Shown here in pieces: positions 1,678-25,187 of a DNA stretch of 64,000 nucleotides. The position numbers were made by a program, and so were the translations under genes. The notes beneath the pieces were generated by a model. That model had not been told where the DNA came from. It saw only the letters and a list, made by a program, of their open reading frames with translations, and did not search any database. The stretch is from a virus (taxonomy: Duplodnaviria > Heunggongvirae > Uroviricota > Caudoviricetes). The first letter of the stretch is position 1; each line of letters opens with the position of its first letter. The stretch lies in the IMG/VR virus record IMGVR_UViG_2541047596_000003; one strand, given 5' to 3'.

Positions 1678-1679
1678 CG

Positions 1680-2213: not shown

Positions 2214-2388
2214 GAGAAGGCCCGCTAGACTATCTTTAATTTCTCGCTCATACAGCCTTGCTTTATGAATAAAACGCACCCCAGCAGCCAGTGCTACTGG
2301 GGACGGAGGTGTTGCTGGTAAAGTTAGGTATTGGATCAATGAGTGAGTCAACATAATATTAAACTCACAATTATAAATCAGCCATATA

Positions 2389-3846: not shown

Positions 3847-3983
3847 ATCTAAATATTCTTTCAATTATAACCACCTTGCTGCAATATTATGATTATACTG
3901 TATAAAATTTAACTCCTCTTAGATCTTACTTCACTGTTCCTTATGAAACAATCATCAAAATGAATCATATTGTAGTTAAGATT

Positions 3984-4460
3984 TTACTTTAAACACTGCT
4001 CGGTTATGTATTGCTGAGCACCTTCAAGTTGGGCCTGCATCATTACCAGTCGTTCCCGGAGGGTGAAATAATCCCGTTCAGCGGTGTCTGCCAGTCGGGG
4101 GGAGGCTGCATTATCCACGCCGGAGGCGGTGGTGGCTTCACGCACTGACTGACAGACTGCTTTGATGTGCAACCGACGACGACCAGCGGCAACATCATCA
4201 CGCAGAGCATCATTTTCAGCTTTCGCATCAGCTAACTCCTTCGTGTATTTTGCATCGAGCGCAGCAACATCACGCTGACGCATCTGCATGTCAGTAATTG
4301 CCGCGTTCGCCAGCTTCAGTTCTCTGGCATTTTTGTCGCGCTGGGCTTTGTAGGTAATGGCGTTATCACGGTAATGATTAACAGCCCATGACAGGCAGAC
4401 GATGATGCAGATAACCAGAGCGGAGATAATCGCGGTTACTCTGTTCATTGCTGACCCCAC
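3984..4460 (-). CDS. Rz-like i-spanin
   Basis: 158 aa, N-terminal TM then coiled-coil, directly downstream of the endolysin; contains embedded +1 lipoprotein ORF. Confidence 0.75.
4043..4228 (-). CDS. Rz1-like o-spanin lipoprotein (embedded in Rz)
   Basis: [20 protein letters not shown] lipobox plus proline-rich body, wholly inside the Rz frame. Confidence 0.65.
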
Positions 4461-4942
4461 AAACAGATTTCACGCTCAATCTCACGACGAGTCATGAGAC
4501 CTTTCCATTGCTTACCGCCAGCATATGTCCAGCGACGTAGCTGATCACATGCGCCTTTGATATCGCCCTGGTTTATTTTGCGAAGAAGCGTCGATGTTCT
4601 GAAATTGCCAGCACCCACGTTGTAAACGAATGAGTAAAGAGCGCCGCGCGTTGTTTCCGGTATATCGACTTTGATGTACGGGTTAATTTGTCTGGCGACC
4701 GTGGCAAGGTCTTTATTCAAGAGTGTTTTGCATTCTGCTTTGGTATACGTTTTACCGAGCATGATGTCTTTTCCTGTATGCCCGTGACATACAGTCCATA
4801 CACCAACAATATCTTTGTATGGTATGTAGCTGACACCTTCCAGACCATCGTTACCACTTGGGCCAGTGATTAACACTGATGCTATAGCAATTGCTCCGCC
4901 ATCAATAGCAGCAGCAACGACTTTTCGTAATGATGGAGGCAT
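4445..4942 (-). CDS. phage lysozyme / endolysin (GH24-like)
   Basis: 165 aa with the lysozyme R family signature ...[19 protein letters not shown]...; between holin and Rz. Confidence 0.85.
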
Positions 4943-5157
4943 TATTCACCTCTCGCAGCCTTGCGCTTATCTTCTTTAATCTTGAAATAAAGGTTTGTCA
5001 GGTACGTCAGCAGGCCAAATACCAGACTACCCAGCACACCGATTGCAGCCCACTGTGACGGAGTTACTCTATCGAGCAACTGTAAAAACCAGTAGCCAGC
5101 ACTGCCTGCGGAGGTGCCGTAGGCAATGCCTGTTGAAATTTTGTCCATGGATTTCAT
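4942..5157 (-). CDS. holin (EssD-like, class II)
   Basis: [26 protein letters not shown]... with SD GGAGGTGA upstream of the ATG at 5157; ORF track start 5214. Confidence 0.75.
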
Positions 5158-5257
5158 AGCCTCACCTCCGCACGGAACGGATGGCATAGTTATTATGTGT
5201 AGGCTTTCAGACACATCAATCAGAGCCTTAATTGATATATATGCTGGAGACGATGCA

Positions 5258-5283
5258 ATATAAAAAGCTCGCCGTAGCGAGCT
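5258..5283 (-). terminator. rho-independent terminator after the lipoprotein pair
   Basis: Hairpin AGCTCGC-CGTA-GCGAGCT (5266-5283); minus-strand RNA follows it with a U-run (A-run 5262-5266 on +). Confidence 0.5.
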
Positions 5284-5408
5284 AATAAAATGTATTTCTC
5301 TGATATTATGTTTATTTGTATTAGCTCAGACTTGACATCACAGGTTTCGTATATAGAACATCATCAAATCTGTCAGTTTGCTATGAATGAGATATAGTAA
5401 TTGAAGAG

Positions 5409-5804
5409 CTAACCTCGCATGTCAAAGCCAGATTTCTGAAAATCTCTGTAGACTTCCGGATTGTTGAAGGCCGGAAATTTGGCTTTATGAGCTGCGGACT
5501 TTATCGCTTCGCAATAGGCTTTATCACCGTTACTGGTAGATATTTTTAACGCCGTGCCATCCTGAGAGAATTCCATATGCAACCTGCATTTTTTCCCTTT
5601 CCAGTTATGCGGCTCATCAAGTTTGGCATTAATTGCAGCTCTGATTCCCCGCGCTTGCGCCCCCCATTCATCCTGATCATCCCAGCGTCCTGAACTGCAA
5701 CTACCTGTAGCAGTAGTTTTGTGGCAATCTGAAGGGTGTAAAGGTGTGCATCCCGCAACAAAACCGACCCAAAAAGTCAACATAACGATTTTCTTTAATC
5801 CCAC
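5409..5804 (-). CDS. lipoprotein with divergent TolA domain III-like C-terminus
   Basis: Signal peptide with lipobox VAGC; C-terminus ...KGKKCRLHMEFSQDGTALKISTSNGDKAYCEAIKSAAHKAKFPAFNNPEVYRDF resembles TolA-III; start 5804 is GTG with SD GAGGAG. Confidence 0.6.
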   Translation of the reverse strand: MGLKKIVMLTFWVGFVAGCTPLHPSDCHKTTATGSCSSGRWDDQDEWGAQARGIRAAINAKLDEPHNWKGKKCRLHMEFSQDGTALKISTSNGDKAYCEAIKSAAHKAKFPAFNNPEVYRDFQKSGFDMRG

Positions 5805-5954
5805 TTCTTGCTCCTCAATCCATTAAAATCTCAGCAATAGTAGTTGTTACGTCCGCCACTGGCTCAGAGCTGACTATCCGCTAAATTTAGCTCAGTGCCG
5901 TAGCTGTGTCAGAACAAACCTAAGCCGAAACCGTTTATTACAAAACAATAAATA

Positions 5955-6383
5955 TCAGGGTTTAAAATCCAGCACCCCATTTTGAAATACTTTATATACT
6001 TCCGGCGAAGGGGGGGCAGGTATATCAGCATTCTTTATCGCATTCATCGCTTCACGACATAAATCGAGGTCTCCACTTTCTCTTTTAACCTCCAGTAGAA
6101 GGCCATTCGGGGCCATATGCATTCTCAGTGTACACTCTTTTCCTGAATACTTACTCGCATCCCCGAACTGTTTTTCGATGGCGCTCTTGATTTGATGGGC
6201 ATACAGACGGATATCCTCACTAACATCAGAAGTACGTTCAGATGAACTCACATACTGTGTCTCTATTGCTTTATCGGAGTAATATGATGTACGGTCATGA
6301 TAATTTGTCGATACAGCATCAGTGCACCCGATAATAATCCCACTAATAATCAACGTAAGAATTGATGCGCTACGAAAACCCAT
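5955..6383 (-). CDS. lipoprotein with TolA domain III-like C-terminus
   Basis: Signal peptide with lipobox IIGC; C-terminal ~90 aa YAHQIKSAIEKQFGDASKYSGKECTLRMHMAPNGLLLEV...CREAMNAIKNADIPAPPSPEVYKVFQNGVLDFKP closely parallels recalled E. coli TolA C-terminus ending ...VYEVFKNAPLDFKP. Confidence 0.65.
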   Translation of the reverse strand: MGFRSASILTLIISGIIIGCTDAVSTNYHDRTSYYSDKAIETQYVSSSERTSDVSEDIRLYAHQIKSAIEKQFGDASKYSGKECTLRMHMAPNGLLLEVKRESGDLDLCREAMNAIKNADIPAPPSPEVYKVFQNGVLDFKP

Positions 6384-6413
6384 TTTTCCTCACATATGTC
6401 ATATAGTAAAGGA

Positions 6414-6442
6414 TTATATATACCGTTGTTTTGGACGCTCAA
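6414..6442 (-). promoter_or_regulatory. candidate sigma70 promoter of the lipoprotein cassette
   Basis: On the minus strand TTGAGC-17 bp-ATATAA(T), about 30 nt upstream of the lipoprotein ATG at 6383. Confidence 0.35.
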
Positions 6443-7319
6443 ACAGCGAATCAGATCAAATAAAACGCACATTTGTTAACATTTACACAAAGTCTGCGTG
6501 GGATATTCTGAAAGAATATCCATAATGTGGAGAGAATCTATTGAAGTGCATGGTGCCGGGTGCCTCCCGGTGAACAAAATGTTCGTGATACCTGTCGGCG
6601 ACAGAAAAGGTTAATGGTATCACCCCACCGCACAGGGGGATTCACCATGCAGGAGTTTTCTTAGCAAACTCACTGCGCGCCCGGCAACTCCCAACCACAT
6701 AAAATGCGGAGTTTGTGGTATTTATGCATATAACTCGCAGGAATTATCTTAAAAAACTGATGTCGATCCGGATTAAAAAGAAGCAGGTCATCATCAGATG
6801 ACTGGAAAAAAGGAAAACAAAAAATACTCATCATACAGTTTTGATTGCAGGGATGAGCCTGCTATGCACAATATGCAGAATATAAGCAAGATAAAAATAT
6901 GCAGGCATATTATTTCGGATTTTGTTATTAACACAACCTTTTTAATAATCATTTGGCATACAATAAACCAGCCCAAAAAGAACCGCCTAAACAGGCGGTT
7001 GGTCAATACAAAGGATGCTTCGTCTTTATTATAGTAATCTGAGGCGTCGGGTGTCTTGTATCAGACAACATATTGTCCCGCTAAACAGCGAATTACAAAC
7101 CACCCTGCAATGATCTCTCATCTCATTTTATATGAGTTGACGACATCAGGATAACGCATCATCAGCCCCTGCCAAGAAATATCAAAACTCCCGCCAGCAA
7201 TGTGTTATCACAATATTGTAAAAAAAACACAGCACCGAAACTATAACTGGTCTCTGTTATAATTTGGAGCAGAAAGACCAGTTGCCCAACTAGCAGCATT
7301 CTCCCCTGCTTTCCTGACG

Positions 7320-7348
7320 TAAAAAAACCGCATTAAGCGGTTTTTTTA
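7320..7348 (-). terminator. tR'-like rho-independent terminator downstream of the Q-like gene
   Basis: AAAAAAACCGC-ATTAA-GCGGTTTTTTT, a symmetric hairpin with U-runs on both strands, ~80 nt after the Q-like stop. Confidence 0.5.
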
Positions 7349-7427
7349 CGATGTCCATGTCTGCAATCCGCCTCGCGATACAGCTTTGCGAAGCATAGCA
7401 AAATTGAAGCAGTTTATACGTAAGAAA

Positions 7428-7970
7428 TCAAGCCATTTTCTCAGCAAATGATTCACGCATGGGAATATATAGGGCATACTCAGCAACAGCTAACCAATTA
7501 GCAATCCGTTTTTCGCATGTGCTAAAACACCACTCTGGGTGTGCATCATTTAGCAATTCAGCCATTTTGCGCTTAGTCATCCCCCGCCCTTCATAGCGTT
7601 GCCGGAGAATGCAAATCAATCCTGGATGCTCTGCCAGCACCTCACTTATGACTCGATCAATACATAACGCCTCTGCATCAGTACAATGCGCCAGCCAGCT
7701 CTTTTGCTTGCCGTTGATCATCTCTCGCAAAAACGCTTCCAGCTCAGCTTTCTCTATTCCCGCTTTTTTCATTCTGCGCAGGGCTTCATTAATGGCTGTT
7801 TTCGTCAGTTTTTTGGATGCCAACAACTGATTGAACATATTCCCTGACCTGCCACCGCCAATATACGACCAGCGCCCCCACATACGTAGTTTTCCCTGAA
7901 TCCAGACACTTTCCAGCGTGGTGAGGCGAAGGTGTTCTCCGCTTTTTCCTGTATTCGTTGGGTAAATCAT
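7428..7970 (-). CDS. putative late-gene antiterminator (Q-like)
   Basis: 180 aa ORF at the Q position, between ybcO-like and the terminator/lysis region; assignment positional. Confidence 0.45.
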   Translation of the reverse strand: MIYPTNTGKSGEHLRLTTLESVWIQGKLRMWGRWSYIGGGRSGNMFNQLLASKKLTKTAINEALRRMKKAGIEKAELEAFLREMINGKQKSWLAHCTDAEALCIDRVISEVLAEHPGLICILRQRYEGRGMTKRKMAELLNDAHPEWCFSTCEKRIANWLAVAEYALYIPMRESFAEKMA

Positions 7971-8257
7971 AAATGACCTTTCTTTCTCCAGATTTCTTGT
8001 GTGCGAAAAACCCCTTCAGCATGCATCAGGCGCAATTCTTCTTTGGTGTAATCGCTGGTTTTTACCCGCCCGTCGATTAGATCGTGGCATGAGCTACAGG
8101 CTATCGCCGCCTGCATATCGTGTGGTTTTGTCGCTGTTCCGCACGTCCCCGCCAGCCTGTAATGCGCCAGCACAGAGGTTTCGGGATTGTGATTGCAGTA
8201 GCCAGGGATTCTGATCTGGCACATCTGGCCTTTAGCCGCTTTACGTAAATTCACCAT
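7967..8257 (-). CDS. YbcO-like putative nuclease (DUF1364)
   Basis: 96 aa, Cys/His-rich (CSSCHDLIDGR); resembles DLP12 YbcO; ATGA overlap with the Q-like start. Confidence 0.55.
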   Translation of the reverse strand: MVNLRKAAKGQMCQIRIPGYCNHNPETSVLAHYRLAGTCGTATKPHDMQAAIACSSCHDLIDGRVKTSDYTKEELRLMHAEGVFRTQEIWRKKGHL

Positions 8258-8856
8258 TACGCAAACTCCAGTAGTTGTGCGGCCACATTTTCAACTTCCT
8301 CCTGAGAGGAGAATTTACGAAACAGAATCCAGTTCCACAGCACATTCAGTACAGATTTATAAACCTGCTGAAACTCGACTTCGTCCATATTCGCAAAAGC
8401 GATGGATTTTGCCCGACGCCCACGGCTACCGTCCGGATAAATATGCTCGGTGTAAAATCCGGCCTGAATGGTTACCCACTCGCGGAAAGCCTCAAACGAC
8501 TTTAGCAACGCCGTATCCCGGGTTCTACGAGTCGCAACGGTGTTAAGGTATTGCTCTGCGGCATCACTCAGGGCTGGCGTGTGTTCCCGACCAACTGATT
8601 CGCACAGGTAATCAACGAAACCAGACAGCAGTTCTCGTTCGCGAGGCGTGATCGCCCCACCGACCGGAGTCCAGTAATCGAATCCCAGTTGCAGGAGTTT
8701 GAAAAAACGCTTGTGGAATGCGTAGTTACGCACACGCTTAAAGTCTGCGTGTATCCACTCACCTATTTTGATTTGATGCAGAAAATCGCAACTCTCCGGC
8801 GTCGCCGGGAGAAGTAAACCAGAAGAAGTTTGTTTGACCAGTTGTATATGCGCCAT
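8257..8856 (-). CDS. YdfU-like DUF1367 phage protein
   Basis: 199 aa ORF coupled to ybcO-like; similarity to Qin YdfU recalled, not computed. Confidence 0.45.
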   Translation of the reverse strand: MAHIQLVKQTSSGLLLPATPESCDFLHQIKIGEWIHADFKRVRNYAFHKRFFKLLQLGFDYWTPVGGAITPRERELLSGFVDYLCESVGREHTPALSDAAEQYLNTVATRRTRDTALLKSFEAFREWVTIQAGFYTEHIYPDGSRGRRAKSIAFANMDEVEFQQVYKSVLNVLWNWILFRKFSSQEEVENVAAQLLEFA

Positions 8857-9136
8857 TTCTCAATCTCTCGATGGCGCAGCGCAGCAGATGCCAGTTGTTC
8901 AGGCTGACGAATAAAGTATAAATAAACTGGCTATGGTGTAAAGCCCCACATAGCATGAACAAACACTACATATCAAATAGCTGGTACAAGGATAGAAATA
9001 CGACATTTATTATTAAAAACGATTAGATAAATTACATTTTAATGTTATGCAAAAGTTCTTTTTTATCATAACATTTCAATAAAAGCATTACAGATGCAAT
9101 CATCCCGTCATCATCAATTATTTAAGGTGGTTAAAC

Positions 9137-9223
9137 ATGGAAAATAACAAGTTCGCACATCTCGCTCCTTTTTTATCCGTAATCCTTTTCGCTTGTTGTT
9201 TTATATGGGCATTATTTTTATAA
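9137..9223 (+). CDS. 28-codon hydrophobic peptide ORF (MENNKFAHLAPFLSVILFACCFIWALFL)
   Basis: ATG 9137 preceded by SD AAGGTGG; single predicted TM; lies in an AT-rich stretch with no ORF of 60 aa or more. Confidence 0.3.
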   Translation: MENNKFAHLAPFLSVILFACCFIWALFL

Positions 9224-9627
9224 AGTAGCCACATGATAAGTTGCTGGAATCATATTTCCCACTCAAGTCATTAACATTTGATAAGATATATCTAAAAGGA
9301 CGCCTTTACATTATTTATGTGTATATAATTTATTTATATACACAGTAAAGGTATCCTGGGAAAATATTTATCGTTAAAAAATACATCATAAATAATTAAG
9401 CTGAAATTTCAGAACACAACTAATACACACAATAAGGTTCAGTAACAATAATCTATGTGGACTACATCGAGATTTTTTGATTAAACTTTAATAACTTATT
9501 CCTAACACACAGAATGCATAAACTAAAAGTAAAACAAATAGTTATACGAAAAACAACCATATTTATTATATCTTCTCCTCTAATCAACATATCAATTATG
9601 TGTTTCATAACAGCTTGACATAACCCT

Positions 9628-9658
9628 CAAAAACACGCATTTATAATGCATGTTTTTG
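9628..9658. promoter_or_regulatory. operator-like palindrome over a TATAAT box upstream of the yeaR-like gene
   Basis: CAAAAACACGCAT-TTATAA-TGCATGTTTTTG (13-bp arms, one mismatch); TTGACA at 9615-9620; resembles NsrR-type sites as I recall them. Confidence 0.35.
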
Positions 9659-9669
9659 AGGAGGTGGTT

Positions 9670-10008
9670 ATGACACACAAGAGAATTCCTAAAGATTGGG
9701 TAATCAAACGCTCAACTCCGTTCTTCACAAAAGAGAACGTACCTTCAGCGTTATTAACACATCATAATACAGCAGCAGGTGTTTTTGGGCAGTTGTGCGT
9801 AATGGAAGGCACTGTAACATATTATGGTTTTACTGATGAGAATGCTACTGAACCGGAGATAAAAGTAGTCATTAATGCTGGCGCTTTTGCAACAAGCCCA
9901 CCACAATACTGGCACCGTGTTGAACTAAGCGATGATGCTCAGTTTAATATTAACTTTTGGGTCGCTCCAGACTTCTCGGGCGAAAAAGTCTATAGCACCA
10001 AAAAATAG
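9670..10008 (+). CDS. YeaR-like DUF1971 protein (TehB N-domain-like)
   Basis: 112 aa from ATG 9670 with SD GAGGAGGTGG; motifs STPFF, HHNTAAGV, MEGTVTYYGF, FNINFWVAP resemble chromosomal YeaR; ORF track start 9646. Confidence 0.6.
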   Translation: MTHKRIPKDWVIKRSTPFFTKENVPSALLTHHNTAAGVFGQLCVMEGTVTYYGFTDENATEPEIKVVINAGAFATSPPQYWHRVELSDDAQFNINFWVAPDFSGEKVYSTKK

Positions 10009-10037
10009 ATGATCATATTAAAAATGCTTTAACAGTC

Positions 10038-10075
10038 AGACCCGGCAGGGCTATCCCCGACGGGTCTCATTTTTG
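10038..10075 (+). terminator. rho-independent terminator after the yeaR-like gene
   Basis: Stem AGACCCG / CGGGTCT with a 16-nt loop, then TTTT at 10071-10074. Confidence 0.45.
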
Positions 10076-10459
10076 TAAATATATTGGTTCTACATTGACA
10101 GGAGACTTCAACCATAAGAAGTAATCTGAATACTTGAGCAATAAATTTACTTAAGATTAATGAGCGCACCTTGCCGGACAAAGATAAACCAAGGTAACAC
10201 CTTTTTTCTAGCCAGTATGTAATCAATCAGAAAGCCGCTCCATAAGAACAACAGCAAGACAATAAATTGCCATTACAGCCGCAATAGCCAGCGCACATTT
10301 GAGAACCAGCACGACACCCCCCTGTATTAGACGCACACCAGTCCTGATAAATATAAGGCTGTCTCGTCAGTGATTCAATACAACTATTGGGTATAGTTTC
10401 TGTGATTTTATTCTGTAGAAATGGAACACAACAACCAGTCACCACCAGCACTTCTTTAA

Positions 10460-10471
10460 ATACGCCAAGTC
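10460..10471. repeat. 12-bp direct repeat AATACGCCAAGT, left copy
   Basis: Perfect copy of the 12-mer also at 12239-12250; the two bracket the low-GC HEPN-like gene. Confidence 0.5.
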
Positions 10472-10484
10472 CGACGCAAGCTAA

Positions 10485-10550
10485 CCTTCTAGTCCGCTTT
10501 GAGCGAGAAGCGGAAGTCTCGGTCTTATTATGTTCTGAGACTAGAAGGTA
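10485..10550. repeat. nested inverted-repeat element
   Basis: Outer 11-bp arms ACCTTCTAGTC / GACTAGAAGGT 44 bp apart, enclosing TCCGCTT/AAGCGGA and AGTCTC/GAGACT stems. Confidence 0.4.
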
Positions 10551-10678
10551 TTTCTTAAGGATGATTATTCGTTACGCCTACATATAATAGAAACAGAAAT
10601 TTAAAGTTTAAATCTAGGTATCTGGCTAATGATACCTAGATTGAATTTGAATCATATTTTGTTAGTTAACTTTAACTA

Positions 10679-12046
10679 TTATCTTTCTCCAACATCCTCT
10701 TCTAAAACATGATCTATCTTATCTACAGGAAGATTATCATACTTAGAAAAATCAAAACCATCGGGAAGTTTATTTTTTGCTGCTTTTAATATTCTTATTG
10801 AATCGTTACCGTTTCTAGAGCGATTTCGCCAATAACATTGATTGTTTTTGTTTGCTCCTTCAAGCAGGGTTAACATTTGCTCGCTTGAGTAATTAGCCAA
10901 GTCTTTGTCAATAAATCTATCAAAATATATATCGGCTCGTTCGAAATCAGCACTATTTATAAAACAAGCAATTCCAAAATCGCGATACTCTGATTCCAAA
11001 CCTAATTCGCTGCAAACATTTTTAAAAATTGCCAAATGTTGCTGGTTGAGAAAATTCCCATTATCCCCGTATTTTTTGTAATATTTTTCAGATATTCTTT
11101 TTGTTACGCGATTAATGTGTTCCTCCGGCGATTCAGATATAAAAAAGGCTATTCCAAAATAAGATATGTTATCTTTTATAATAGGCTTTATGAGTTCTTT
11201 TACTGAATCATCCAAGGCGTTATATATTTCTTTCTCCATGGAAATGAACTCAATTAGTGCCTTAATTGCATCATGGTTATTGGAAATATTGGAGTAATAA
11301 GCAGTTTCTGCTTTAACCGAGTCCACCATGGCTTGCCTGTCTTTTTCAAATATCAGTTTCATAGCTCTGATATTTATCTCTCTATTTTCTAATGGCTTAG
11401 CTTCTTCAGATCTAAACGAAAACTTCCACAACCCCTTGAATATCTTAACTAATACTTCCTTGTTTAAAGATTTGAAATATTTAACATCTAAGTATTTTTT
11501 TAGCGCGTTATCGGAAGGGAATAGGTCCTTTACCTTTTCTAGATCTGCAACAAATGTGGAAAGTATTTTTTGAGACATAAATGGCGGCTTGCTTAATATT
11601 ACTTCTATACTATTCCTAATGTCACTTCTAATCATTTCCTGTGTTGGCTCGAATAACGTATCTTCGTCACTTATTACGGGATGGGCAGATAAATGCCTGT
11701 GTTTTTGAATAAGTAAAACTTTATGGTTTGAAGCAGTGTCTAATAATTGAGTTCTTTCAAAAACTCTTTTAATAAGCTCTTTTTCCCATTTAGGAGAGTA
11801 AGGATCATCGTTTTGTAGTGCTTCAATTTCTAATAATATCTTTTCCGCAACAGCATCGTTATGAACATCTCGCAGTTCTTGGAGCTTAAAAATAATATCA
11901 CATACAACTACTGACCATAGCATCACGGTAGCAGAACGGTAACAACCATTAGCATAGCTCTTATAAACCTCTTCAAAATATTTTCTAGTTCTTCTATCAT
12001 AAATTTTACTCTTCTGAGATTCTAATGAGAATATTCTAACGTCCAT
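10679..12046 (-). CDS. HEPN-like protein, candidate abortive-infection/defence effector (function unproven)
   Basis: 455 aa from ATG 12046 with SD GGAGA; markedly AT-rich versus neighbours; KHRHLSAHP contains an R-x4-H motif after a predicted helical N-terminal region; ORF track start 12094. Confidence 0.6.
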
Positions 12047-12238
12047 AATTTCTCCATGAAAAATATTTAACTCAAATAATTGAATATGAATCATGTAGTC
12101 ATAAATACTTCAAAATTATATTTTTAGCCCACTTAATTCATACAAAACTTCTTTAATAAACTGATTCAGGCCTCATGCATTATGCTTTTAACAAACTATC
12201 CTAACCTTCATAGTGTAAATCTTGATGTTCAATTTTAC

Positions 12239-12250
12239 AATACGCCAAGT
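12239..12250. repeat. 12-bp direct repeat AATACGCCAAGT, right copy
   Basis: Second perfect copy, 1779 bp from the first. Confidence 0.5.
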
Positions 12251-12434
12251 TTCCGTAAATCAATGAATGCGTCGGATTTTACAATAATTTAAAAGAGATG
12301 TTGAATAGTATCCATGAAGTGTAAGGTTAATATACCCAAAACGTCCGCCTCTGGCACAAAGCGGACAACCACGCTAGCTCTACCCTGTGCCACAAAATGT
12401 CAATTTGCATCTGAACTAATGCACTTTAATCTCG

Positions 12435-12857
12435 TCACTTCAATAAATACCGAACATCACCCTGATAAAACGACAATATGCGCTGCATAACTTCACTCTT
12501 CCGGCACTCGCGACAGATTATGTTCTGACGCCTGTCGTAGCGACGTATTTCTCCGTCAGGTAATGACCAGATAAGGTCCGGATCAACCGCAGATGGTTTC
12601 TTCAGCTTTGCCCTTGAGAGCTTTTTACGGGCATTTTGCCAGTCCTTACGCGCCTGTTCAGACGGGAATAACCCGTAACCAGAGTTGTATACATCGCCGC
12701 TGGCAACCAGCTCTCTTGCGAGAACGCTCATCAGATATCTTGTCGCATCTGTCTTGACTTCCAGTTGCCGTAACGTCTCGCGTCCACTCCGGCGTACTAG
12801 CTCAACAACCTGCCCTTTAATTTTTTCCCGCTCTTCCTGTGTAAAAACTTTTGCCAT
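12435..12857 (-). CDS. hypothetical phage protein
   Basis: 140 aa from ATG 12857 (MAKVFTQEER) with SD GGAGG; contains a CRECRK motif; ORF track start 12872 is TTG. Confidence 0.45.
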   Translation of the reverse strand: MAKVFTQEEREKIKGQVVELVRRSGRETLRQLEVKTDATRYLMSVLARELVASGDVYNSGYGLFPSEQARKDWQNARKKLSRAKLKKPSAVDPDLIWSLPDGEIRRYDRRQNIICRECRKSEVMQRILSFYQGDVRYLLK

Positions 12858-12872
12858 AAGCGCCTCCGGCAA

Positions 12873-13634
12873 TCACTTTTCCGACACAATACGACTGGAG
12901 GAATCGACAATCTGTCGGACAATATCCCGGTGCTTGTTCAGCTCCCGCAGCGCGGCGCAGACTCGCTCCCACTTCTGGACATGATTTTTCGCCCGACGCA
13001 GTTCGCGGTTTGCCATATGCAGCGATGGTAAAACCAGGTCATCCGCTTGCGTTTCAGTAAACGATGGCAGCGACTGCACAATGTCCGCCACAGTTTCTGT
13101 TTTAATATCTTCCTGTGTTGCCGCTTCCTGTACTGGTAACGCAACACCGGCTGGCTGAGGAAAGGCTTTACCATCAGTTTCCGCTACCGATGCAGCTTTC
13201 GGCTCTGCTGGTAAATTATCGCCCGGCATGCAGTAACGAAATTTACCGTTCTGATTAACGCGAATCAGACGACCTTTATTGATTGCCATTGCCAGCGTTG
13301 AAGCCACTTTGCGTGATGTGATGCCGAAAAACGTAGCCAGTTCATCCGCCGTTTGTGGGCCACGTTGTTCAATCGTCGCAGTTAAATCGCACTCCGAAAT
13401 TTTTGCGACTGTTGCCGTGGTGGTTTCTTCCGGCAGTTCTGCCTGCTCTGGCTGTTCCTGCTGAACGTTGTTATCAGCCACGCGCCAGGTGTATACGCTT
13501 TTATCAACGAAGCCAGCCTTTTTCAGTTCCCACAGCTCGTTCAGCACTTCTTCACGACTGATATCAAGTCGCGCAGCCAGTTCTACCGACGTAGCTTTCC
13601 CCATTGCTTTCAGTGCGTCAAAAACAGTCTCCAT
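12873..13634 (-). CDS. winged-helix DNA-binding phage protein
   Basis: ATG 13634 ([43 protein letters not shown]) with SD GGGAGAA; ORF track start 13685. Confidence 0.5.
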
Positions 13635-13656
13635 TAAATTTTTCTCCCGGTAAAAA

Positions 13657-14403
13657 TTACTTCGCAATTCCTGGCTGGACGACATTCGGACGCCAGCTCT
13701 CCCAGTTAAAATTCACCCATCGCCCGCCGTTCATGGTCATGCGATCCATAATCCGCTCGCCGAGCAATGTTTTCATGGCCTCATAGTTCAGGTTTGTCAG
13801 CATTCCCACGCTACGCATCGACGCTGTCCGTCGATCAATAATCTGGTGCAGTACCACCTGCTCGTTTTTCGTCTCGCGCTGAATGCCAATTTCATCAAGA
13901 ACCAGCAGATCCACTTCGCACAGTTCCCGCAAAAATTTTTCGCCTGACTGCCCGTCGTCATAGCTGGCGTGGAGGGCACTCATAACATCAGCCACGGTAA
14001 CCACAATCACTGTCTGACCGTCTTTCAGCAGGCGATTCCCGATAGCTGCCGCTAAGTGATTCTTCCCGGTACCAGGTTTTCCGCTGAACGCAAAATTTGT
14101 ACACCCGGTCATCAGTTCATCAGCGATGGATTTCGCCTGACTCAACGCGTATCGCTGCCCTTCGTTCTGCACCTGGTAATTCGAAAACGAGCATTTGCGG
14201 TGCAATGGCTGGATGCCAGAGCGATTCAGAATTTTTTCCACCCGCAACTGACGATTCTGACGGTTGATCTCCTCACAACGTTTCTGGCCTTCGGAAAGTT
14301 GCCACTCGCGCCACTCCGCTACCGTCTTGAATGGCGCGGTTACATGTGACGGGGCCAGTCTGCGGATACGTTCAAGAACGTCGCCTGTCGCAATATTTTT
14401 CAT
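13657..14403 (-). CDS. ydaV: DnaC-like replication protein (helicase loader)
   Basis: 248 aa with Walker [16 protein letters not shown] and Walker [10 protein letters not shown]; same length as Rac YdaV. Confidence 0.85.
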
Positions 14404-14511
14404 GGTCAGTTACCCCCTGAAGCCTGGCGGGATCGCACTATCCGGTAACGAGACGGTGTTAACCTGTCGGAGTAACGTCTCAGGTCGAACACCTTTCGGC
14501 GCGAACAAGCC

Positions 14512-15198
14512 CTAGTATTCGTTGGCGATGCTGTGTCGAATCACCTGCTCAGGTGAAAAACCCTGCTGGCGGAATTTTTCCAGCTCCCGTATCGCCCCGT
14601 TAGCGCCCTGCTCCGTTCGAATCGGTTTTCGCAATGCCTGCCTGAACTGAACCCACTCATGCCAGAGTGTTTCCGGCAACCAGTCAGGCAGCTCGATAGC
14701 CTCCGGTTCGAATTTTTTAGACGCTCGTTTTTGGCGAGGGGGATTTAGGGGGAGATAAGTATTTATATCTTCCTCTTTCTCTTCCTCTGGTAACGCTTTT
14801 TGATCCGTTTTTGTAACGCTGGCAGCGTTACCTTTTCGTTTCAGTTCTCGTATTTTTGTTACTCTCTCGTTTGTAACCGCCCGTTTTTTAGAGCTTTTCC
14901 CGTTATGGCGCTCAAAGTTAGGAAGCGACAACACACCATTAGTTTCGACCAGCCATCCAACCTGAATTAACGCATCAGCAAAACCAGCCATAAAAGTGAT
15001 GCGATCTATTGCACTTTTTGTAACGCCGCGAGCGTTACACTCTGCGTTACCGTCTATCATTTGTTGATCCGCCCATGCCCAGAAGCGAATGACTTTCCCT
15101 AATGCGGCATCTGGATCAATATTCAGAATCTCAGCAAGCCTGAATATTTCCGGCTTATCCGGCGTAATAACTTCGAGCTTTATCCAGTTTGAAGCCAT
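14512..15198 (-). CDS. replication initiation/organiser protein (YdaU-like)
   Basis: 228 aa upstream of the DnaC-like gene, basic C-terminal half; positional call. Confidence 0.55.
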   Translation of the reverse strand: MASNWIKLEVITPDKPEIFRLAEILNIDPDAALGKVIRFWAWADQQMIDGNAECNARGVTKSAIDRITFMAGFADALIQVGWLVETNGVLSLPNFERHNGKSSKKRAVTNERVTKIRELKRKGNAASVTKTDQKALPEEEKEEDINTYLPLNPPRQKRASKKFEPEAIELPDWLPETLWHEWVQFRQALRKPIRTEQGANGAIRELEKFRQQGFSPEQVIRHSIANEY

Positions 15199-15275
15199 TT
15201 GTTTTCACCTTGTAACGCTCGCAGCGTTACATTTAACTGATACCGAACAAAACAGTTCGGTACGATTAATTTCAA

Positions 15276-15698
15276 TCAATGCACTACGACAGAATCGCTA
15301 GGAGAACCGCCGCCGCTGAAATGTGCTTTACGGTAAACGGCCTGGACTGCATCATCATGCGCATCAATTGCCGTACTCAGTGCATCCTGTGCCGCCAGTA
15401 ATGCACGGCGTTCCAGGGTATCGAAGATGCAGAGTCGGTGACGCAGCTCGCGAGGAAGAATTGCCAGAACCGCAGGGATCAGTTTCTGAATTTTTTCCCT
15501 TTGCGCATTCGTTTCACCTTTCAACCAACGATGATAGATATTCTGCTGATTGTTCCAGTCCTTGCCTGGTACCAGGGGCAATTCGCCGCCCCCCTGGCGC
15601 AGATATTCTTCAGTAATTGCGTTAGCGACCCACGCCTGCCCTTTTTCGGCTGCCAGGGCTAACAACACTGATTCGATGTGCTCATGCTTGATTTTCAT
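15276..15698 (-). CDS. ydaT: YdaT-like prophage protein
   Basis: 140 aa (MKIKHEHIESVLLALAAEKGQ...), same length and position as Rac YdaT, co-oriented with the Cro-like gene. Confidence 0.65.
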   Translation of the reverse strand: MKIKHEHIESVLLALAAEKGQAWVANAITEEYLRQGGGELPLVPGKDWNNQQNIYHRWLKGETNAQREKIQKLIPAVLAILPRELRHRLCIFDTLERRALLAAQDALSTAIDAHDDAVQAVYRKAHFSGGGSPSDSVVVH

Positions 15699-15949
15699 GA
15701 ATCAACTCCCATCAGCTTTTTCGTAGTAGTTTTATTTCTGCCAATAGTTAAAATTGCATCGGCAGAAAATAATCCGTTTGATGCATGAGCGATTTTTTCA
15801 GCGTAATTTGTTTCGCCGGTATATTCTGTGCGAGGCAATTTTCCGTTATCCATCCATTTGTAGATTGCTCTTTGGCTGACACCACAAACGTCGGCCACAA
15901 CAGAAACGCGAACAGTTTTGATTACATCTTCAAGTGTTTTCTGGTTCAT
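15695..15949 (-). CDS. Cro/YdaS-like HTH regulator
   Basis: ATG 15949 (MNQKTLEDVIKTVRVSVVADVCGVSQRAIYKWMDNGKLP); ORF track start 16021 would leave no room for divergent promoters. Confidence 0.6.
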   Translation of the reverse strand: MNQKTLEDVIKTVRVSVVADVCGVSQRAIYKWMDNGKLPRTEYTGETNYAEKIAHASNGLFSADAILTIGRNKTTTKKLMGVDS

Positions 15950-16028
15950 ATCACCCTCACAATGTGAACTTTGAGTACATGCTATAACAGAACTGACAGT
16001 ACATTCAAGAGCGAATATCATTGAACTT
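15950..16028. promoter_or_regulatory. immunity-region divergent promoter/operator segment
   Basis: 79-bp gap between divergent HTH genes; contains direct repeats AGTACAT 26 bp apart. Confidence 0.4.
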
Positions 16029-16448
16029 ATGGTTCATGAAGATAAAGCGCGTAAAGAGTTCGCCAGTAGGCTTGCGCTAGCCTGTGAAAACGCTGGTTAT
16101 GAACAACATGGAAGGCAGGCAGAAATTGCCCGTCGAATGAAATTAACACCAAAAGCGGTTAGCAAATGGTTTAATGGTGAAACAATTCCTCGCCGAGAGA
16201 AATTAAGGGAATTAGCAACACTCATTGGAACAACACCAACCTATCTTTTGGGAGAGGATACAGAAGAAAGTGGACAGATACGTTTCTATCAGGAGTTAAA
16301 TCCAAGACAAAAAATCATCATTGACCTTCTGGACGAGCTCCCTGACAGTGAGACAGATGAACTTTTAAAAACTCTTGAGGAGAAAAAACAGAAGTACAAT
16401 GCAATTTACGAAGAGTTAGCACGAAAGAAAAAACAAAAAGCCTCTTAA
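16029..16448 (+). CDS. XRE-family prophage repressor (RacR-like)
   Basis: 139 aa with HTH ...KLTPKAVSKWFNGETIPRREKLRELATLIGTTPTYLLGE; divergent from the Cro-like gene. Confidence 0.65.
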   Translation: MVHEDKARKEFASRLALACENAGYEQHGRQAEIARRMKLTPKAVSKWFNGETIPRREKLRELATLIGTTPTYLLGEDTEESGQIRFYQELNPRQKIIIDLLDELPDSETDELLKTLEEKKQKYNAIYEELARKKKQKAS

Positions 16449-16735
16449 ACCAGCATAAATCCGGTAGCGTCCCCCTCCGGGTTTGTGCTTCACTTTATCC
16501 CGTCTCATTTTTTTATACATAAAATGTACTTAAAGTACTTTACAATGATGAACACAAAGTACATTATATACCTACCAACCCACCCCGCCCCACAGAACGC
16601 CGGGCAATACTTCGAGTTACCAGGCAGTGGTCAGGGGTTAAGTAGCCAGCCCGAGGCGTATGAACATGACGGCGGGATTCAAATTTTGCAGTGCAGCAGT
16701 TAGTTCCGCCACCCGGCGTTAAGGGGATAGATAAG

Positions 16736-16870
16736 ATGGTGCATTACGAAGTAGTTCAGTATTTGATGGATTGTTGCGGTATCACTTACAACCAGGCTGT
16801 GCAGGCTTTACGCAGCAACGACTGGGATCTCTGGCAGGCAGAAGTCGCTATACGTAGCAACAAGATGTGA
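16736..16870 (+). CDS. ydaG: small Rac protein YdaG-like (44 aa)
   Basis: Hand translation MVHYEVVQYLMDCCGITYNQAVQALRSNDWDLWQAEVAIRSNKM; below the ORF-track size cutoff. Confidence 0.55.
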   Translation: MVHYEVVQYLMDCCGITYNQAVQALRSNDWDLWQAEVAIRSNKM

Positions 16871-16880
16871 GATTCGCAAA

Positions 16881-17036
16881 ATGCAAAAAATCGACCTCGG
16901 CAACAACGAATCCCTGGTGTGCGGCGTGTTCCCCAACCAGGATGGAACGTTCACTGCCATGACGTATACCAAAAGCAAAACATTTAAAACCGAAACTGGT
17001 GCGCGCCGATGGTTGGAGAAGCACACAGTAAGCTAA
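16881..17036 (+). CDS. ydaF: small Rac protein YdaF-like (51 aa)
   Basis: Hand translation MQKIDLGNNESLVCGVFPNQDGTFTAMTYTKSKTFKTETGARRWLEKHTVS. Confidence 0.55.
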   Translation: MQKIDLGNNESLVCGVFPNQDGTFTAMTYTKSKTFKTETGARRWLEKHTVS

Positions 17037-17521
17037 CGATTAAAACGTCTACTCCTGCTGTTCCAGAATAACTTCATAAAATGGGAGTATTTTTCGGTGA
17101 CGAGATAATAAGAACAGTTTGCGCTATCACTCTGATGTTGAATGATGCCCTTCCGTTCTAATTTTTTCATAACCGGGTTACGGCAAGGAGAAGTGATAAT
17201 AAGATTTCCTGTTTTAAGGAAATCTTTAAATACAGCGATTTCTTTCTCAGATAAACGAAGCAATACTCGTTGCTCTGGTAGTAATGAATAATGCTTTTGA
17301 ATATGTGCTCGCAATCTTGAGAAGGAAATGGCGACCACGAAAGAAAAGGCAAAAACGATAATCTGAAAGAGCCAAGGTATTTCAGTATAAGCATTGAATG
17401 CGGCAGTAAACTCTTTCGGTATCAGCCAGAGAGTGAGACCAAAAATGATAATCGTATACATAAGTCTTTCGAGTGGCTCGTTAGCAAAAAGTTTCAACAA
17501 TGGAGTAAATACATCCAACAT
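17033..17521 (-). CDS. sieB: superinfection exclusion protein B
   Basis: 162 aa from ATG 17521 (MLDVFTPLLKLFANEPLERLMYTIIIFGL), membrane N-terminus; ORF track start 17644. Confidence 0.75.
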   Translation of the reverse strand: MLDVFTPLLKLFANEPLERLMYTIIIFGLTLWLIPKEFTAAFNAYTEIPWLFQIIVFAFSFVVAISFSRLRAHIQKHYSLLPEQRVLLRLSEKEIAVFKDFLKTGNLIITSPCRNPVMKKLERKGIIQHQSDSANCSYYLVTEKYSHFMKLFWNSRSRRFNR

Positions 17522-17962
17522 ATCAATAACTCTCAACTGTAAGGGTATTGAAATGTTAACACAAGCTCTCGCTGTAGGGGTATAGCCGAGACCACCGAAG
17601 TCTGGAGGTGGTGAAATAAAACCGGGCACAACACGAAGGCGCATTTCCGATATCCATAAAGAGTCGGTCTTGTCTGTTAAATTTAAATGGTGGGAGTGCG
17701 CCTCCGGTTGTAAATAACGACATTGCTGTGTGTAGTCCTGGCGGCATCAGTTTTTTTCTTGAAGTTCGGCTGATGTCCGCCCTTTTTAAAGTGAATTTTG
17801 TGATGCGGTGAATGCGGCTAAGCGCACGTGGCACAGTTAAAAGTCATGTTAGTCCTTATTGGTTTGGGTGGGAAAGCCGACTGTAATTGTTAACTGGTTG
17901 CAGTCACCTGGAGGCACCAGGCACCGCATCAACAAAGTTCATTTGTAAAAATGGAGATAATT

Positions 17963-18184
17963 ATGATTGCACATCACTTCGGAACTGATGAAATACCACG
18001 TCAGTGTGTGACTCCTGGCGATTATGTTCTTCATGAAGGCCGGACATATATTGCCTCGGCAAACAATATTAAAAAGCGAAAACTATATATTCGTAACCTG
18101 ACCACAAAAACATGCATTACTGACCGCATGATTAAAGTCTTCCTCGGTCGTGATGGTTTACCTGTAAAGGCGGAGTCATGGTGA
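17963..18184 (+). CDS. kilR: KilR cell-division inhibitor
   Basis: 73 aa [29 protein letters not shown]... from ATG 17963 with SD GGAGA. Confidence 0.8.
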
Positions 18185-18354
18185 TGACTAAGAAAATAAA
18201 ATGTGCTTACCACCTTTGCAAAAAAGACGTTGAAGAAAGCAAAGCTATTGAAAGAATGCTTCACTTCATGCACGGGATTTTATCAAAAGACGAACCGAGA
18301 AAATATTGCAGTGAAGCTTGTGCCGAAAAAGACCAGATGGCACATGAACTTTAA
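18184..18354 (+). CDS. ydaE: YdaE-like small Cys-rich protein (56 aa)
   Basis: Hand translation [56 protein letters not shown]. Confidence 0.65.
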   Translation: MTKKIKCAYHLCKKDVEESKAIERMLHFMHGILSKDEPRKYCSEACAEKDQMAHEL

Positions 18355-18428
18355 TTAATTGACTATTCGAAACTGAATTTATGCCAGAAATGGCAGGTAT
18401 TCGCTCAACCTTAATTAAGGAGAAAAAC

Positions 18429-18704
18429 ATGATTACCAATTATGAAGCCACTGTTGTAACTACCGATGACATTGTTCACGAGGTGAATCTGGAAGGAAAG
18501 CGCATTGGCTACGTAATTAAAACAGAAAATAAAGAAACCCCATTCACTGTGGTTGATATCGATGGTCCATCAGGCAACGTAAAAACACTTGATGAAGGTG
18601 TCAAAAAAATGTGCCTGGTGCATATCGGAAAGAATCTGCCCGCAGAAAAAAAAGCCGAATTTCTGGCAACTCTAATTGCAATGAAATTAAAAGGTGAAAT
18701 CTGA
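18429..18704 (+). CDS. racC: RacC
   Basis: 91 aa from ATG 18429 (MITNYEATVVTTDD...) with SD AAGGAG. Confidence 0.75.
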   Translation: MITNYEATVVTTDDIVHEVNLEGKRIGYVIKTENKETPFTVVDIDGPSGNVKTLDEGVKKMCLVHIGKNLPAEKKAEFLATLIAMKLKGEI

Positions 18705-18805
18705 AAGAAATAGCCTGCGTATGGCGCAGGCTATGAACAGTGTGTATCCGGCAAGATCATTCACTGAACAAAACGAATTTTAATCTGAGTTGAGGTTAAA
18801 AAACA

Positions 18806-22208: not shown

Positions 22209-22264
22209 TTCAGCCTGGCGGTGTAATGCACCGCCAACTTGAAATATTTTTTATGAGAAAAATT

Positions 22265-22661: not shown

Positions 22662-22739
22662 AACTTCATAGCTGATTATTAATAATCAACATCGGGCGTC
22701 AATTTCAGTCTAACATTGGCGCCTGCCAGAGGTGATGCG

Positions 22740-22955: not shown

Positions 22956-22956
22956 T

Positions 22957-24192: not shown

Positions 24193-24243
24193 TTGCAAAG
24201 TTTGCCCCCAATTTGCCCCATTTAGTACCAGAGAACTGAAATA

Positions 24244-25179: not shown

Positions 25180-25187
25180 TCAGGATA

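Follow-up and report, generated by a model that had tools for sequence, protein, structure and literature searches.

The gene at positions 10679-12046 of the DNA analysed here almost certainly encodes DARNA (ssDNA-Activated RNase), also known as PD-T7-3 and 'Dandelion', a single-gene abortive-infection defence system. DARNA is already known, and there is nothing new in the gene itself. It is carried by a Rac-type prophage in the window, the term used here for the whole stretch of 64,000 nucleotides (IMG/VR record IMGVR_UViG_2541047596_000003). Judging from homology breakpoints, the cargo slot that holds the gene is edged by two conserved 24-bp hairpins in inverted orientation and not by the 12-bp direct repeats singled out in an initial annotation. 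The window contributes only another prophage context (Rac) for a known defence gene, and at this locus only the slot between the hairpins merits further work.

Identity of the DARNA gene

The gene and the parts of its product are located as follows.

10679..12046, minus strand: DARNA / PD-T7-3 / 'Dandelion' coding sequence, 455 aa plus a TAA stop
11570..12046, minus strand: N-terminal HEPN RNase domain, aa 1-159
11681..11698, minus strand: catalytic R117-H-L-S-A-H122 (R-x4-H), translating to RHLSAH
10682..11569, minus strand: C-terminal alpha-helical ssDNA-sensor domain, aa 160-455 (PDB 9wwz covers aa 156-455; F368 and W406 are present)

The 455-aa protein matches the PADLOC profile PDLC04108 (PD-T7-3) with E = 3e-168 and 558 bits, residues 5-440 aligning to positions 3-429 of 432. 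It is identical to PDB 9wxf_A over 455/455 residues (9wxf has 12 chains). PDB 9wwz and 9wx2 ('Dandelion', 'Dandelion-hepn') are also identical and cover the two domains. Residues F6, N33, R98, R117, H122, K201, K204, E347, F368, and W406 all occur at their published DARNA positions, and no difference was found between the window ORF and the characterised protein. SCZE5 has RefSeq WP_001703208.1 at the corresponding position, and both the Rac and the P2-like copies carry this protein accession. The cassette in the window has 99.7% DNA identity to the ECOR30 (P2-EC30) copy and the same native promoter region; compared with the characterised copy, only the genomic context differs.

The initial annotation had described an AT-rich, minus-strand ORF with its own Shine-Dalgarno sequence, and this description is accurate. 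The GC content of the ORF is 0.33 (GC3 0.28), compared with 0.49-0.52 in the neighbouring prophage genes. Scans of the 455-aa protein against Pfam, NCBIfam, and PHROG returned no meaningful family, the only match being a sub-threshold one to DUF6559.

The gene was sequenced earlier as 'ORF1' of P2-EC30 (GenBank AJ512676). Defence by PD-T7-3 was shown in 2022 with ECOR30 as the source, where the 1368-nt ORF was labelled HEPN (Vassallo et al. 2022, Nat Microbiol, PMC9519451). The structure and mechanism of DARNA followed in 2026 (Puteikiene et al., bioRxiv 10.64898/2026.02.22.705581). A literature search for 'Dandelion' and HEPN found no paper behind the depositions 9wxf, 9wwz, and 9wx2. The novelty implied by the initial annotation is thus lost to this earlier work.

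HEPN fold and catalytic motif

The initial annotation had proposed a HEPN RNase defence protein on the basis of a KHRHLSAHP segment with an R-x4-H arrangement. Both the segment and the assignment hold: the protein is the one recognised by the PD-T7-3 profile and solved as 9wxf, and it has the four-helix up-and-down HEPN fold. The R-x4-6-H motif of HEPN domains is present as RHLSAH at aa 117-122. R117 and H122 do not vary across 41 homologues, whose identity goes down to 33%, and conservation at positions 118-121 is at least 90%. N401, Q403, and R407 are also invariant in homologues.

The profile and structure search that had been suggested for a HEPN domain gave a divided answer. The fold was recovered, but sequence profiles found neither a HEPN family nor another HEPN structure. 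There is no curated HEPN family match in Pfam or NCBIfam for the window protein, and a PDB profile search with the homologue alignment finds only the protein's own entries. HEPN membership therefore rests on the fold, as seen in the structure, and on the motif.

Other HEPN RNases include Csm6/Csx1, HepT (of HEPN-MNT), and AbiV, as well as the anticodon nucleases PrrC, RloC, ApeA, and HepS. No similarity between DARNA and a Pfam HEPN family can be detected at the sequence level. It differs from the other HEPN RNases in its ~300-aa Pds5-like C-terminal ssDNA sensor, which is unique, and in forming a dodecamer, as described in the 2026 preprint. According to the same preprint, DARNA is switched on by ssDNA, whereas other HEPN RNases respond to cOA, an antitoxin, or a restriction-enzyme partner.

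Activity and mechanism of the identical protein

The present analysis shows which protein the cassette encodes, its fold and conserved motif, that a single gene makes up the unit, the prophage around it, and where homology breaks off. Activity and activation are taken from the literature on the identical protein, with one 2026 preprint as the source for the mechanism. Under its native promoter, DARNA is reported to defend against T3, T5, T7, and T4, and escape mutants map to SSB. Cleavage of tRNA anticodons was reported in vivo and in vitro, together with activation by ssDNA and cryo-EM structures. Mutated residues comprise the catalytic R117 and H122, the RNA contacts R98, K201, and K204, the ssDNA contacts F368 and W406, and the oligomerisation residues F6, N33, and E347. 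The H122A variant is catalytically dead, and its tRNA cleavage is abolished (bioRxiv 10.64898/2026.02.22.705581).

In the published mechanism, HEPN-mediated dimers stack into a dodecamer whose C-terminal helical domains bind ssDNA at 'CT' dinucleotides. Such ssDNA is accessible when replication intermediates are coated by phage SSBs (T7 gp2.5, T4 gp32, T5 D11) and not by host SSB. Binding activates the R117/H122 HEPN sites, and the anticodon loop of most tRNAs is then cut. Translation and phage development halt as a result.

Organisation of the cassette

Three transcription and translation signals accompany the gene.

12232..12259, minus strand: the cassette's own sigma-70-like promoter, from a promoter scan (-35 TTTACG at 12254-12259, 16-nt spacer, -10 TAAAAT at 12232-12237)
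12052..12055, minus strand: Shine-Dalgarno GGAG, 6 nt upstream of the ATG
10608..10645, minus strand: probable intrinsic terminator of the DARNA gene, a hairpin followed by a U-rich tail, just 3' of the stop codon

The minus_35 and minus_10 annotations of GenBank AJ512676 coincide with the scanned promoter. Folding of the RNA from 10590-10680 (minus strand) gives an 11-bp stem with z = -4.3, and 0/200 shuffles were as stable. The stem at 10608-10645 also appears in the repeat search as inverted repeat I8.

The Rac, P2-like, and third contexts have only 10491-12366 in common, a segment with one ORF, a promoter, and a terminator, in agreement with the single-gene system that had been predicted. 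In the window, DARNA is a self-contained moron with its own promoter, Shine-Dalgarno sequence, and terminator, and the Rac-type prophage carries it in a cargo slot of variable content. From the intact promoter, Shine-Dalgarno sequence, and ORF, the copy in the Rac context is predicted to be expressed, and it is presumably protective. Some related genomes carry an IS3 element inside the 10300-12500 region, so not every DARNA copy need be functional. DARNA in the Rac context occurs in ~0.3% of complete E. coli genomes.

Rac and P2-like contexts

Positions 1115-14645 and 20406-28448 of the window have at least 99.9% identity to the Rac region of SCZE5. That region is annotated with trkG, essD, ydaV, recT, ralR, rcbA, xisR, and intR, followed by ttcA. 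By synteny and by integration next to ttcA, the prophage is confirmed as Rac-type. The slot is located between the replication module (ydaV, DUF1627, DUF977) and a set of genes ahead of the lysis genes, namely DUF1971, DUF1367, DUF1364, and DUF1133. The initial annotation had placed the cassette between the replication and late modules of such a prophage, and the synteny bears this out.

The ECOR30 copy, according to the P2-EC30 Z-region record, belongs to a P2-like prophage, whereas the window copy belongs to a Rac-type lambdoid prophage. The same cassette (10491-12366) is found at the P2 Z/fun variable locus, known as P2 'hotspot 2' (AJ512676; Vassallo 2022). The AJ512676 record already has features for the ORF, for the -35/-10 signals, and for flanking repeats overlapping the two hairpins. 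The slot in the window is likewise bounded by hairpins but sits in the lambdoid Rac backbone. In the P2-like prophages, the cassette lies between genes annotated as a tail-fibre assembly protein and a tail sheath protein, which we take to be P2 genes G and FI. P2-like and lambdoid prophages have swapped the cassette at the boundary hairpins.

Boundary hairpins

The edges of the slot are marked by the following features.

10492..10515, plus strand: boundary hairpin A (GTCCGCTTTGAGCGAGAAGCGGAA), the left edge of the cargo slot as placed by homology breakpoints
12343..12366, minus strand: boundary hairpin B (GTCCGCTTTGTGCCAGAGGCGGAC on the minus strand), the right edge as placed by homology breakpoints; terminator-like for the upstream DUF977 operon
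10479..10530 and 12328..12379, no strand assigned: arms of an imperfect 52-nt inverted repeat bracketing the cassette, 73% complementary (repeat search I1)

On the left, homology to the P2-like and third contexts begins at 10491/10492, and homology to Rac and lambdoid prophages with other cargo stops at 10511-10517. On the right, the breakpoints are at 12340-12343 against prophages with other cargo and at 12366 against the other contexts. The hairpin motif occurs only at the two slot edges in 64 kb, where 0.08 occurrences are expected. The repeat_region features of AJ512676 are the equivalents of the 52-nt arms. An Rfam scan of 9000-13000 found no family for the hairpins or for the structured region 10480-10560, only a spurious miRNA match (E = 0.11). 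The boundary hairpins are not mentioned in recent hotspot papers.

According to a survey of viral contigs, A/B pairs also enclose slots in many other backbones, and tandem units of them occur as well. The hairpins occur in >120 IMG/VR loci, and in 65 of 94 cases adjacent hits form a convergent A/B pair around 0.4-5.8 kb of highly diverse cargo. These slots hold 43 cargos with 75 protein clusters, many of them defence genes. The outer backbones vary and include lambdoid hokD or DUF1971 to DUF977, P2 G to FI, lambda O/P-type replication modules, tail genes, and an invertase. Identical cargo is found in unrelated backbones, with the breaks at the hairpins. Among 12 unique tandem junctions, all of the form B-linker-A, the linker is 18 nt long and variable in sequence in eight.

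In the loop, positions 9-15 show 93-100% conservation across unique A variants and 81-97% across unique B variants, roughly on a par with the stems, although the selection of hits by similarity to a consensus inflates the apparent conservation. Two fixed loop differences separate A from B; the loops read TGAGCGA or TGTGCCA. Covariation is weak. A comparison of whether the outer arm tracks the backbone and the inner arm the cargo gave a clear outcome on one side only. Where the backbone is the same and the cargo differs, changes in hairpin A are nearly confined to positions 16-24. The comparison of the same cargo in different backbones (37 pairs) is confounded by conserved sequence next to A that is common to several cargos.

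The initial annotation had suggested asking whether, in prophages lacking the gene, the junction collapses to a single AATACGCCAAGT. The breakpoints lie at the hairpins instead, and a flank-only megablast turned up no clean empty site, a 272-bp remnant in strain A20 being the shortest slot content. Insertion of the cassette into the loop of one ancestral hairpin was also considered. It was dropped after a scan of viral contigs for a merged hairpin (GTCCGCTTTG-N2-24-CAAAGCGGAC), in which one of the three hits matched coding sequence by chance and the other two were A or B hairpins with indels.

Possible roles of the hairpins and repeats: terminators, exchange sites, or target duplication

The hairpins may be conserved terminators or insulators at module ends, with cargo swapped by ordinary short-homology recombination (RecA or phage Red/RecET-type) over ~24-50 bp. 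The chances of this being correct are evenly balanced. Hairpin B, on the minus strand, lies 3' of the DUF977 operon, or of the tail-fibre assembly gene in one P2-like copy, and its score is terminator-like (10-bp stem, then TTTTGGG). Independently transcribed morons in the slot would need insulation, and Rac itself encodes RecT and RecE. On the strand reading inward, G-U-compatible stem variants slightly outnumber A-C variants (29 vs 11 for A; 28 vs 18 for B), which also counts in favour of this reading. Rad52-like phage recombinases reportedly act on short, diverged homologies, as in work by Martinsohn in 2008 and De Paepe in 2014. Against terminators, no T-tail follows hairpin A whichever way it is read, and in other cargos the hairpin lacks a T-run after it. 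A loop as conserved as the stems, with two fixed differences between A and B, argues the same way, as does the constant 18-nt tandem spacing, which is not expected of terminators.

It is also possible, with a rather low probability, that A and B are recombination sites of a dedicated site-specific cassette exchange, perhaps acting on folded single strands like integron attC, and that this exchange brought DARNA to Rac. The restriction of the hairpins to the slot edges in the window is consistent with this, as are the convergent pairs with diverse cargo across the surveyed loci and the breaks at the hairpins when identical cargo appears in unrelated outer backbones. The conserved loops and the tandem B-linker-A units point in the same direction. 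The title of Nilsson et al. 2004 (with Karlsson and Haggard-Ljungquist; Mol Biol Evol 21:1), which we link to the Z-region record AJ512676, invokes site-specific recombination for P2-like coliphages. On the other side, the slots have no associated recombinase, and the searches yielded no empty site or circular-junction sequence. Hairpin B resembles an ordinary terminator, the conservation is inflated by consensus-based hit selection, and the weak covariation also counts against dedicated exchange.

The slots bear a partial resemblance to integron cassettes with attC sites. The cargo is promiscuous, mostly of a single gene or a few genes, and appears to be delimited by short imperfect palindromes. 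Tandem units have a composite palindromic site between them, here the 66-nt B-N18-A. Unlike in integrons, there is no IntI-type integrase, attI, or Pc beside the slots in the window and the annotated comparators, where the neighbours are ordinary phage genes. The hairpins have no sequence relation to attC core sites. Two of them, in inverted orientation, enclose each cargo, whereas an integron cassette has one attC at its 3' end, and the slot cargo genes have their own promoters and lie in either orientation. An unrecognised exchange mechanism at the A/B hairpins, integron-like in logic and moving defence or moron cassettes among P2-like, lambdoid, and other temperate phages, is an improbable proposal.

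The remaining explanation concerns the 12-bp direct repeats, whose two copies are located as follows.

10459..10470, plus strand: left copy of AATACGCCAAGT, in the Rac/lambdoid backbone and not at the junction; found at the same place in two prophages without DARNA
12239..12250, plus strand: right copy of AATACGCCAAGT, internal to the cassette, in the promoter spacer between -35 and -10

The initial annotation had reported two perfect copies bracketing the unit, and there are indeed exactly two in the window. The right copy was placed correctly, but the left one had been given as 10460-10471 and lies one base further left. They do not bracket the unit. The left copy is 21 nt outside the junction, in conserved backbone, and it also occurs in the outer-left flank of many lambdoid IMG/VR loci with other cargo. 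The right copy is present in two P2-like cassettes and one third-context cassette, none of which has a left copy. Nor is such a repeat rare by chance, as had been supposed: an exact direct repeat of at least 12 nt turned up in 179 of 500 dinucleotide shuffles of 10300-12500 (36%), and other unrelated 12-mer pairs lie nearby (e.g., ATTATGTTCTGA at 10527 and 12517).

Transposition or site-specific integration of the unit with duplication of a 12-bp AATACGCCAAGT target, suggested by two perfect copies 1,780 bp apart with one on each side of the gene, is extremely improbable, since four independent comparators place every breakpoint within 10491-10517 or 12340-12366, away from the 12-mers, the repeat length is within chance, the left copy occurs without DARNA, and the right copy travels with the cassette into contexts that lack the left one. 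Target-site duplication was rejected on these grounds. Working from the letters alone, the initial annotation correctly arrived at a HEPN abortive-infection nuclease from the R-x4-H motif and low GC, and over-read a chance 12-mer.

Implications for phage defence hotspots

Defence hotspots of unrelated temperate phages have the same conserved hairpin pair at their edges, and cassettes break there. If the hairpins are functional exchange sites, they would explain the movement of defence genes between phage families. They would also provide a sequence handle for a systematic search of hotspot cargo.

Identity and Predicted Function of the Gene

The low-GC gene has already been fully described, under the names PD-T7-3, DARNA, and "Dandelion". 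The PADLOC model for PD-T7-3 matches the window protein end to end (E = 3e-168), and the protein is identical at 455 of 455 residues to PDB entry 9wxf ("Dandelion", a 12-chain entry). The two domains are also in the PDB as separate constructs, 9wx2 ("Dandelion-hepn") for aa 1-158 and 9wwz for aa 156-455. Pfam, NCBIfam, and PHROGs scans of the protein found no family. PD-T7-3 originates from a functional screen, as clone T7-38 from ECOR30, and its 1368-nt ORF was tabulated as "HEPN" (Vassallo et al. 2022, PMC9519451). It was renamed DARNA in a February 2026 preprint (Puteikiene et al. 2026, bioRxiv 10.64898/2026.02.22.705581). DARNA is reported to be a dodecameric assembly with an N-terminal HEPN domain (aa 1-159, catalytic motif R117-x4-H122); its C-terminal domain (aa 160-456) is helical and recognizes ssDNA at "CT" dinucleotides. 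It cuts tRNA anticodon loops promiscuously, leading to abortive infection, and phages escape through mutations in their SSB genes (bioRxiv 10.64898/2026.02.22.705581).

The residues mutated in the preprint (F6, N33, R98, R117, H122, K201, K204, E347, F368, and W406) are all found at the same numbers in the window protein. The initial annotation had read the gene, from its motif KHRHLSAHP, as a single-gene HEPN RNase in a Rac-type prophage. The motif is present, and the PADLOC and PDB matches bear this reading out. Judged by sequence identity, the gene encodes a HEPN RNase and is predicted to act as a single-gene abortive-infection cassette within the prophage.

Homologues of the protein number 314 and are all annotated as "hypothetical". 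They come mostly from gammaproteobacteria, and some are from Myxococcus, Paenibacillus, and Bacteroidia. Among 41 aligned homologues, with identity down to 33%, R117, H122, and P123 never vary, and conservation at positions 118-121 is 90% or higher. Three residues near W406, which contacts ssDNA, are likewise invariant (N401, Q403, and R407). The HEPN fold and the conservation of its motif, two points that could have refuted the initial reading, are both upheld. Other HEPN structures in the PDB were out of reach for sequence profiles alone, as built from the homologue alignment.

The ORF is real and has its own Shine-Dalgarno sequence, as first proposed. The features of the gene are as follows:

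10679-12046, minus strand: ORF of 455 aa with a TAA stop
11681-11698, minus strand: codons of R117-x4-H122, within KHRHLSAHP
12052-12055, minus strand: Shine-Dalgarno GGAG
12254-12259 and 12232-12237, minus strand: sigma-70-like promoter, -35 TTTACG and -10 TAAAAT
10608-10645: strong hairpin with a U-rich tail, directly 3' of the stop codon (z = -4.3)

The AT-richness noted earlier is borne out by composition. The ORF has a GC of 0.33 (GC3 0.28), compared with 0.49-0.52 in the adjacent prophage genes DUF977, DUF1627, ydaV, and DUF1367.

Prophage Context and Distribution

The prophage is of the Rac type, as claimed. Two window segments, 1115-14645 and 20406-28448, match the Rac region of E. coli SCZE5 with an identity of 99.9% or more. 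That region is annotated with trkG, essD, ydaV, recT, ralR, rcbA, xisR, and intR and adjoins ttcA. About 5.8 kb (14645-20406), between a ydaU-family gene and a recE-like gene, is kept in the window and deleted in SCZE5. Insertions of IS1 and IS3 in SCZE5 likewise have no counterpart in the window prophage, which is therefore the more complete Rac relative. In SCZE5, an IS1 is inserted at ~9348, within a second AT-rich island (8900-9600, GC 0.26-0.27) that is more AT-rich than the DARNA cassette. This island lies between the DUF1367 and DUF1971 genes, and its longest ORF is at most 48 aa.

Among 5,426 complete E. coli genomes, about 15 have most of the DARNA cassette, which lies variously in Rac, P2-like, and other settings. 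In four E. coli genomes (H5-H8), an IS3-family element of ~1.3 kb lies inside the region matching 10300-12500 and may disrupt the cassette or its flanks.

Boundaries of the Cassette

The cassette was initially described as framed by two perfect copies of the 12-mer AATACGCCAAGT. Both copies exist and are the only two in the 64 kb, at 10459-10470 (the left start had been placed one base off) and 12239-12250. The pair is not beyond chance, as 179 of 500 shuffles that kept the dinucleotide composition of 10300-12500 also contain an exact direct repeat of at least 12 nt, and further unrelated 12-mer pairs lie near the cassette in this region. The left copy is backbone sequence, also found in prophages without the DARNA gene. 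The right copy is within the cassette promoter spacer and is present in P2-like copies that lack the left one. A repeat-defined junction is ruled out by the shuffles and by homology breakpoints, which were mapped against four kinds of comparator and fall elsewhere:

L002, Rac prophage carrying another cargo gene: left flank common up to 10511, right flank from 12340
L004, lambdoid prophage with HAD and NUDIX cargo: left flank common up to 10517, right flank from 12343
L003, P2-like prophage with the same cassette: common segment 10491-12392
L005, third context, beside IS2: common segment 10492-12366
10492-10515: hairpin A, 24 bp, GTCCGCTTTGAGCGAGAAGCGGAA
12343-12366, minus-strand reading: hairpin B, 24 bp, GTCCGCTTTGTGCCAGAGGCGGAC

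The breaks in all comparisons coincide with hairpins A and B. On these alignments, the real boundaries of the cargo slot are the two conserved hairpins, in inverted orientation. They are the central part of an imperfect inverted repeat of 52 nt, with arms at 10479-10530 and 12328-12379. Within the window, the pattern GTCCGC-N11-GCGGA occurs only at A and B, with 0.08 chance matches expected.

Approximately 20 nt outside B, the loop motif of B recurs in an inverted copy, CTGTGCCA (window 12367-12395; comparator L008 2079-2126). Since this copy is common to lambdoid and P2 backbones, the conserved site may extend past the hairpin, or may include a decayed third hairpin. At the other end, a feature peculiar to the Rac context is an 11-bp inverted repeat (ACCTTCTAGTC at 10484-10494, GACTAGAAGGT at 10539-10549) that straddles the junction of backbone and cassette. 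It is the outer stem of a three-way structure at 10480-10560 (z = -3.1 on the plus strand, -3.0 on the minus strand), inside which lie hairpin A and another hairpin. The outer stem may be fortuitous because it is absent in the P2 context.

In P2, the hairpin boundaries are not new. GenBank AJ512676 ("Bacteriophage P2-EC30 proviral Z-region, ORF1") matches window 10491-12366 at 99.7% identity. Its annotation covers the ORF, the promoter elements (-35 and -10), and repeat regions overlapping both hairpins, one labelled "left inverted repeat". The paper behind this record is presumably that of Nilsson et al. The fun locus, a second P2 hotspot, holds three of the systems from the screen (Vassallo et al., PMC9519451).

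Hairpin-Bounded Slots in Other Phages

A scan of viral contigs for the hairpin pattern gave at least 120 loci. When up to 4 mismatches are allowed, the 120 loci listed contain 214 matches, against none in shuffled loci. The hairpins form two subtypes that differ at two loop positions (A, TGAGCGA; B, TGTGCCA), and their loops are as conserved as their stems. Among the matches listed, 65 of 94 adjacent matches form convergent A/B pairs, with 0.4-5.8 kb between A and B.

Slot backbones are varied. In lambdoid slots, DUF977 flanks B, and hokD or DUF1971 flanks A. In P2-like slots, B is flanked by a tail-fibre assembly gene and A by a tail sheath gene; the neighbors of the cassette in L003 are annotated as these two proteins. 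Other backbones include lambda O/P-type replication modules, tail genes, and an invertase.

Cargo is highly diverse, with at least 43 distinct cargos and at least 75 protein clusters among the loci listed. Many cargos are defence genes. The cargo includes retron reverse transcriptases, AbiH, SMODS, SIR2, GmrSD, other HEPN families, PRTase-CE, and adenosine deaminase. LysR regulators, transporters, and dehydrogenases are also found. Cargo can be identical between unrelated backbones, and the break then falls at the hairpins. When hairpin A is compared between loci with the same backbone and different cargo, variation is almost confined to the inner arm (positions 16-24). Several otherwise different cargos (L009, L073, L091, and L119) begin beside A with ATTRCTARCAGCNTYCTGTGTGAAT in the first 25 nt inside, which suggests that some cassettes have an extra conserved element at their A end.

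Tandem units are joined as B-linker-A. The linker varies in sequence; of 12 unique junctions, 8 have a linker of 18 nt and 3 have one of 15-16 nt. As a whole, B-N18-A makes up an imperfect palindrome of 66 nt, with 22 of the 24 positions of B able to pair with A. Junctions are found at:

L009, 5818-5882
L018, 6889-6953
L086, 8151-8216 and 10277-10342
L082, L058, L042, and L100

One lambdoid slot (L033) holds a 5.8-kb multi-gene cargo with a 227-aa tyrosine-recombinase-family gene (5396-6076, minus strand; Pfam Phage_integrase, E = 1e-17), the only recombinase seen inside the slots listed.

Origin of the Shared Boundaries

The hairpins may be insulating terminators between which cargo is swapped by short-homology recombination, an explanation held at about even confidence. 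Hairpin B is terminator-like and Rac encodes RecET, both of which favor it. A dedicated site-specific exchange mechanism acting at the hairpins is considered unlikely. Flank-only megablast and a viral-contig scan for a single merged hairpin found no empty slot, the viral-contig scan found no circular-junction signature, and no recombinase associated with hairpin-bounded slots was found among the loci examined. The gene itself is already known; the hairpin boundaries common to phage defence hotspots are the lead worth following.
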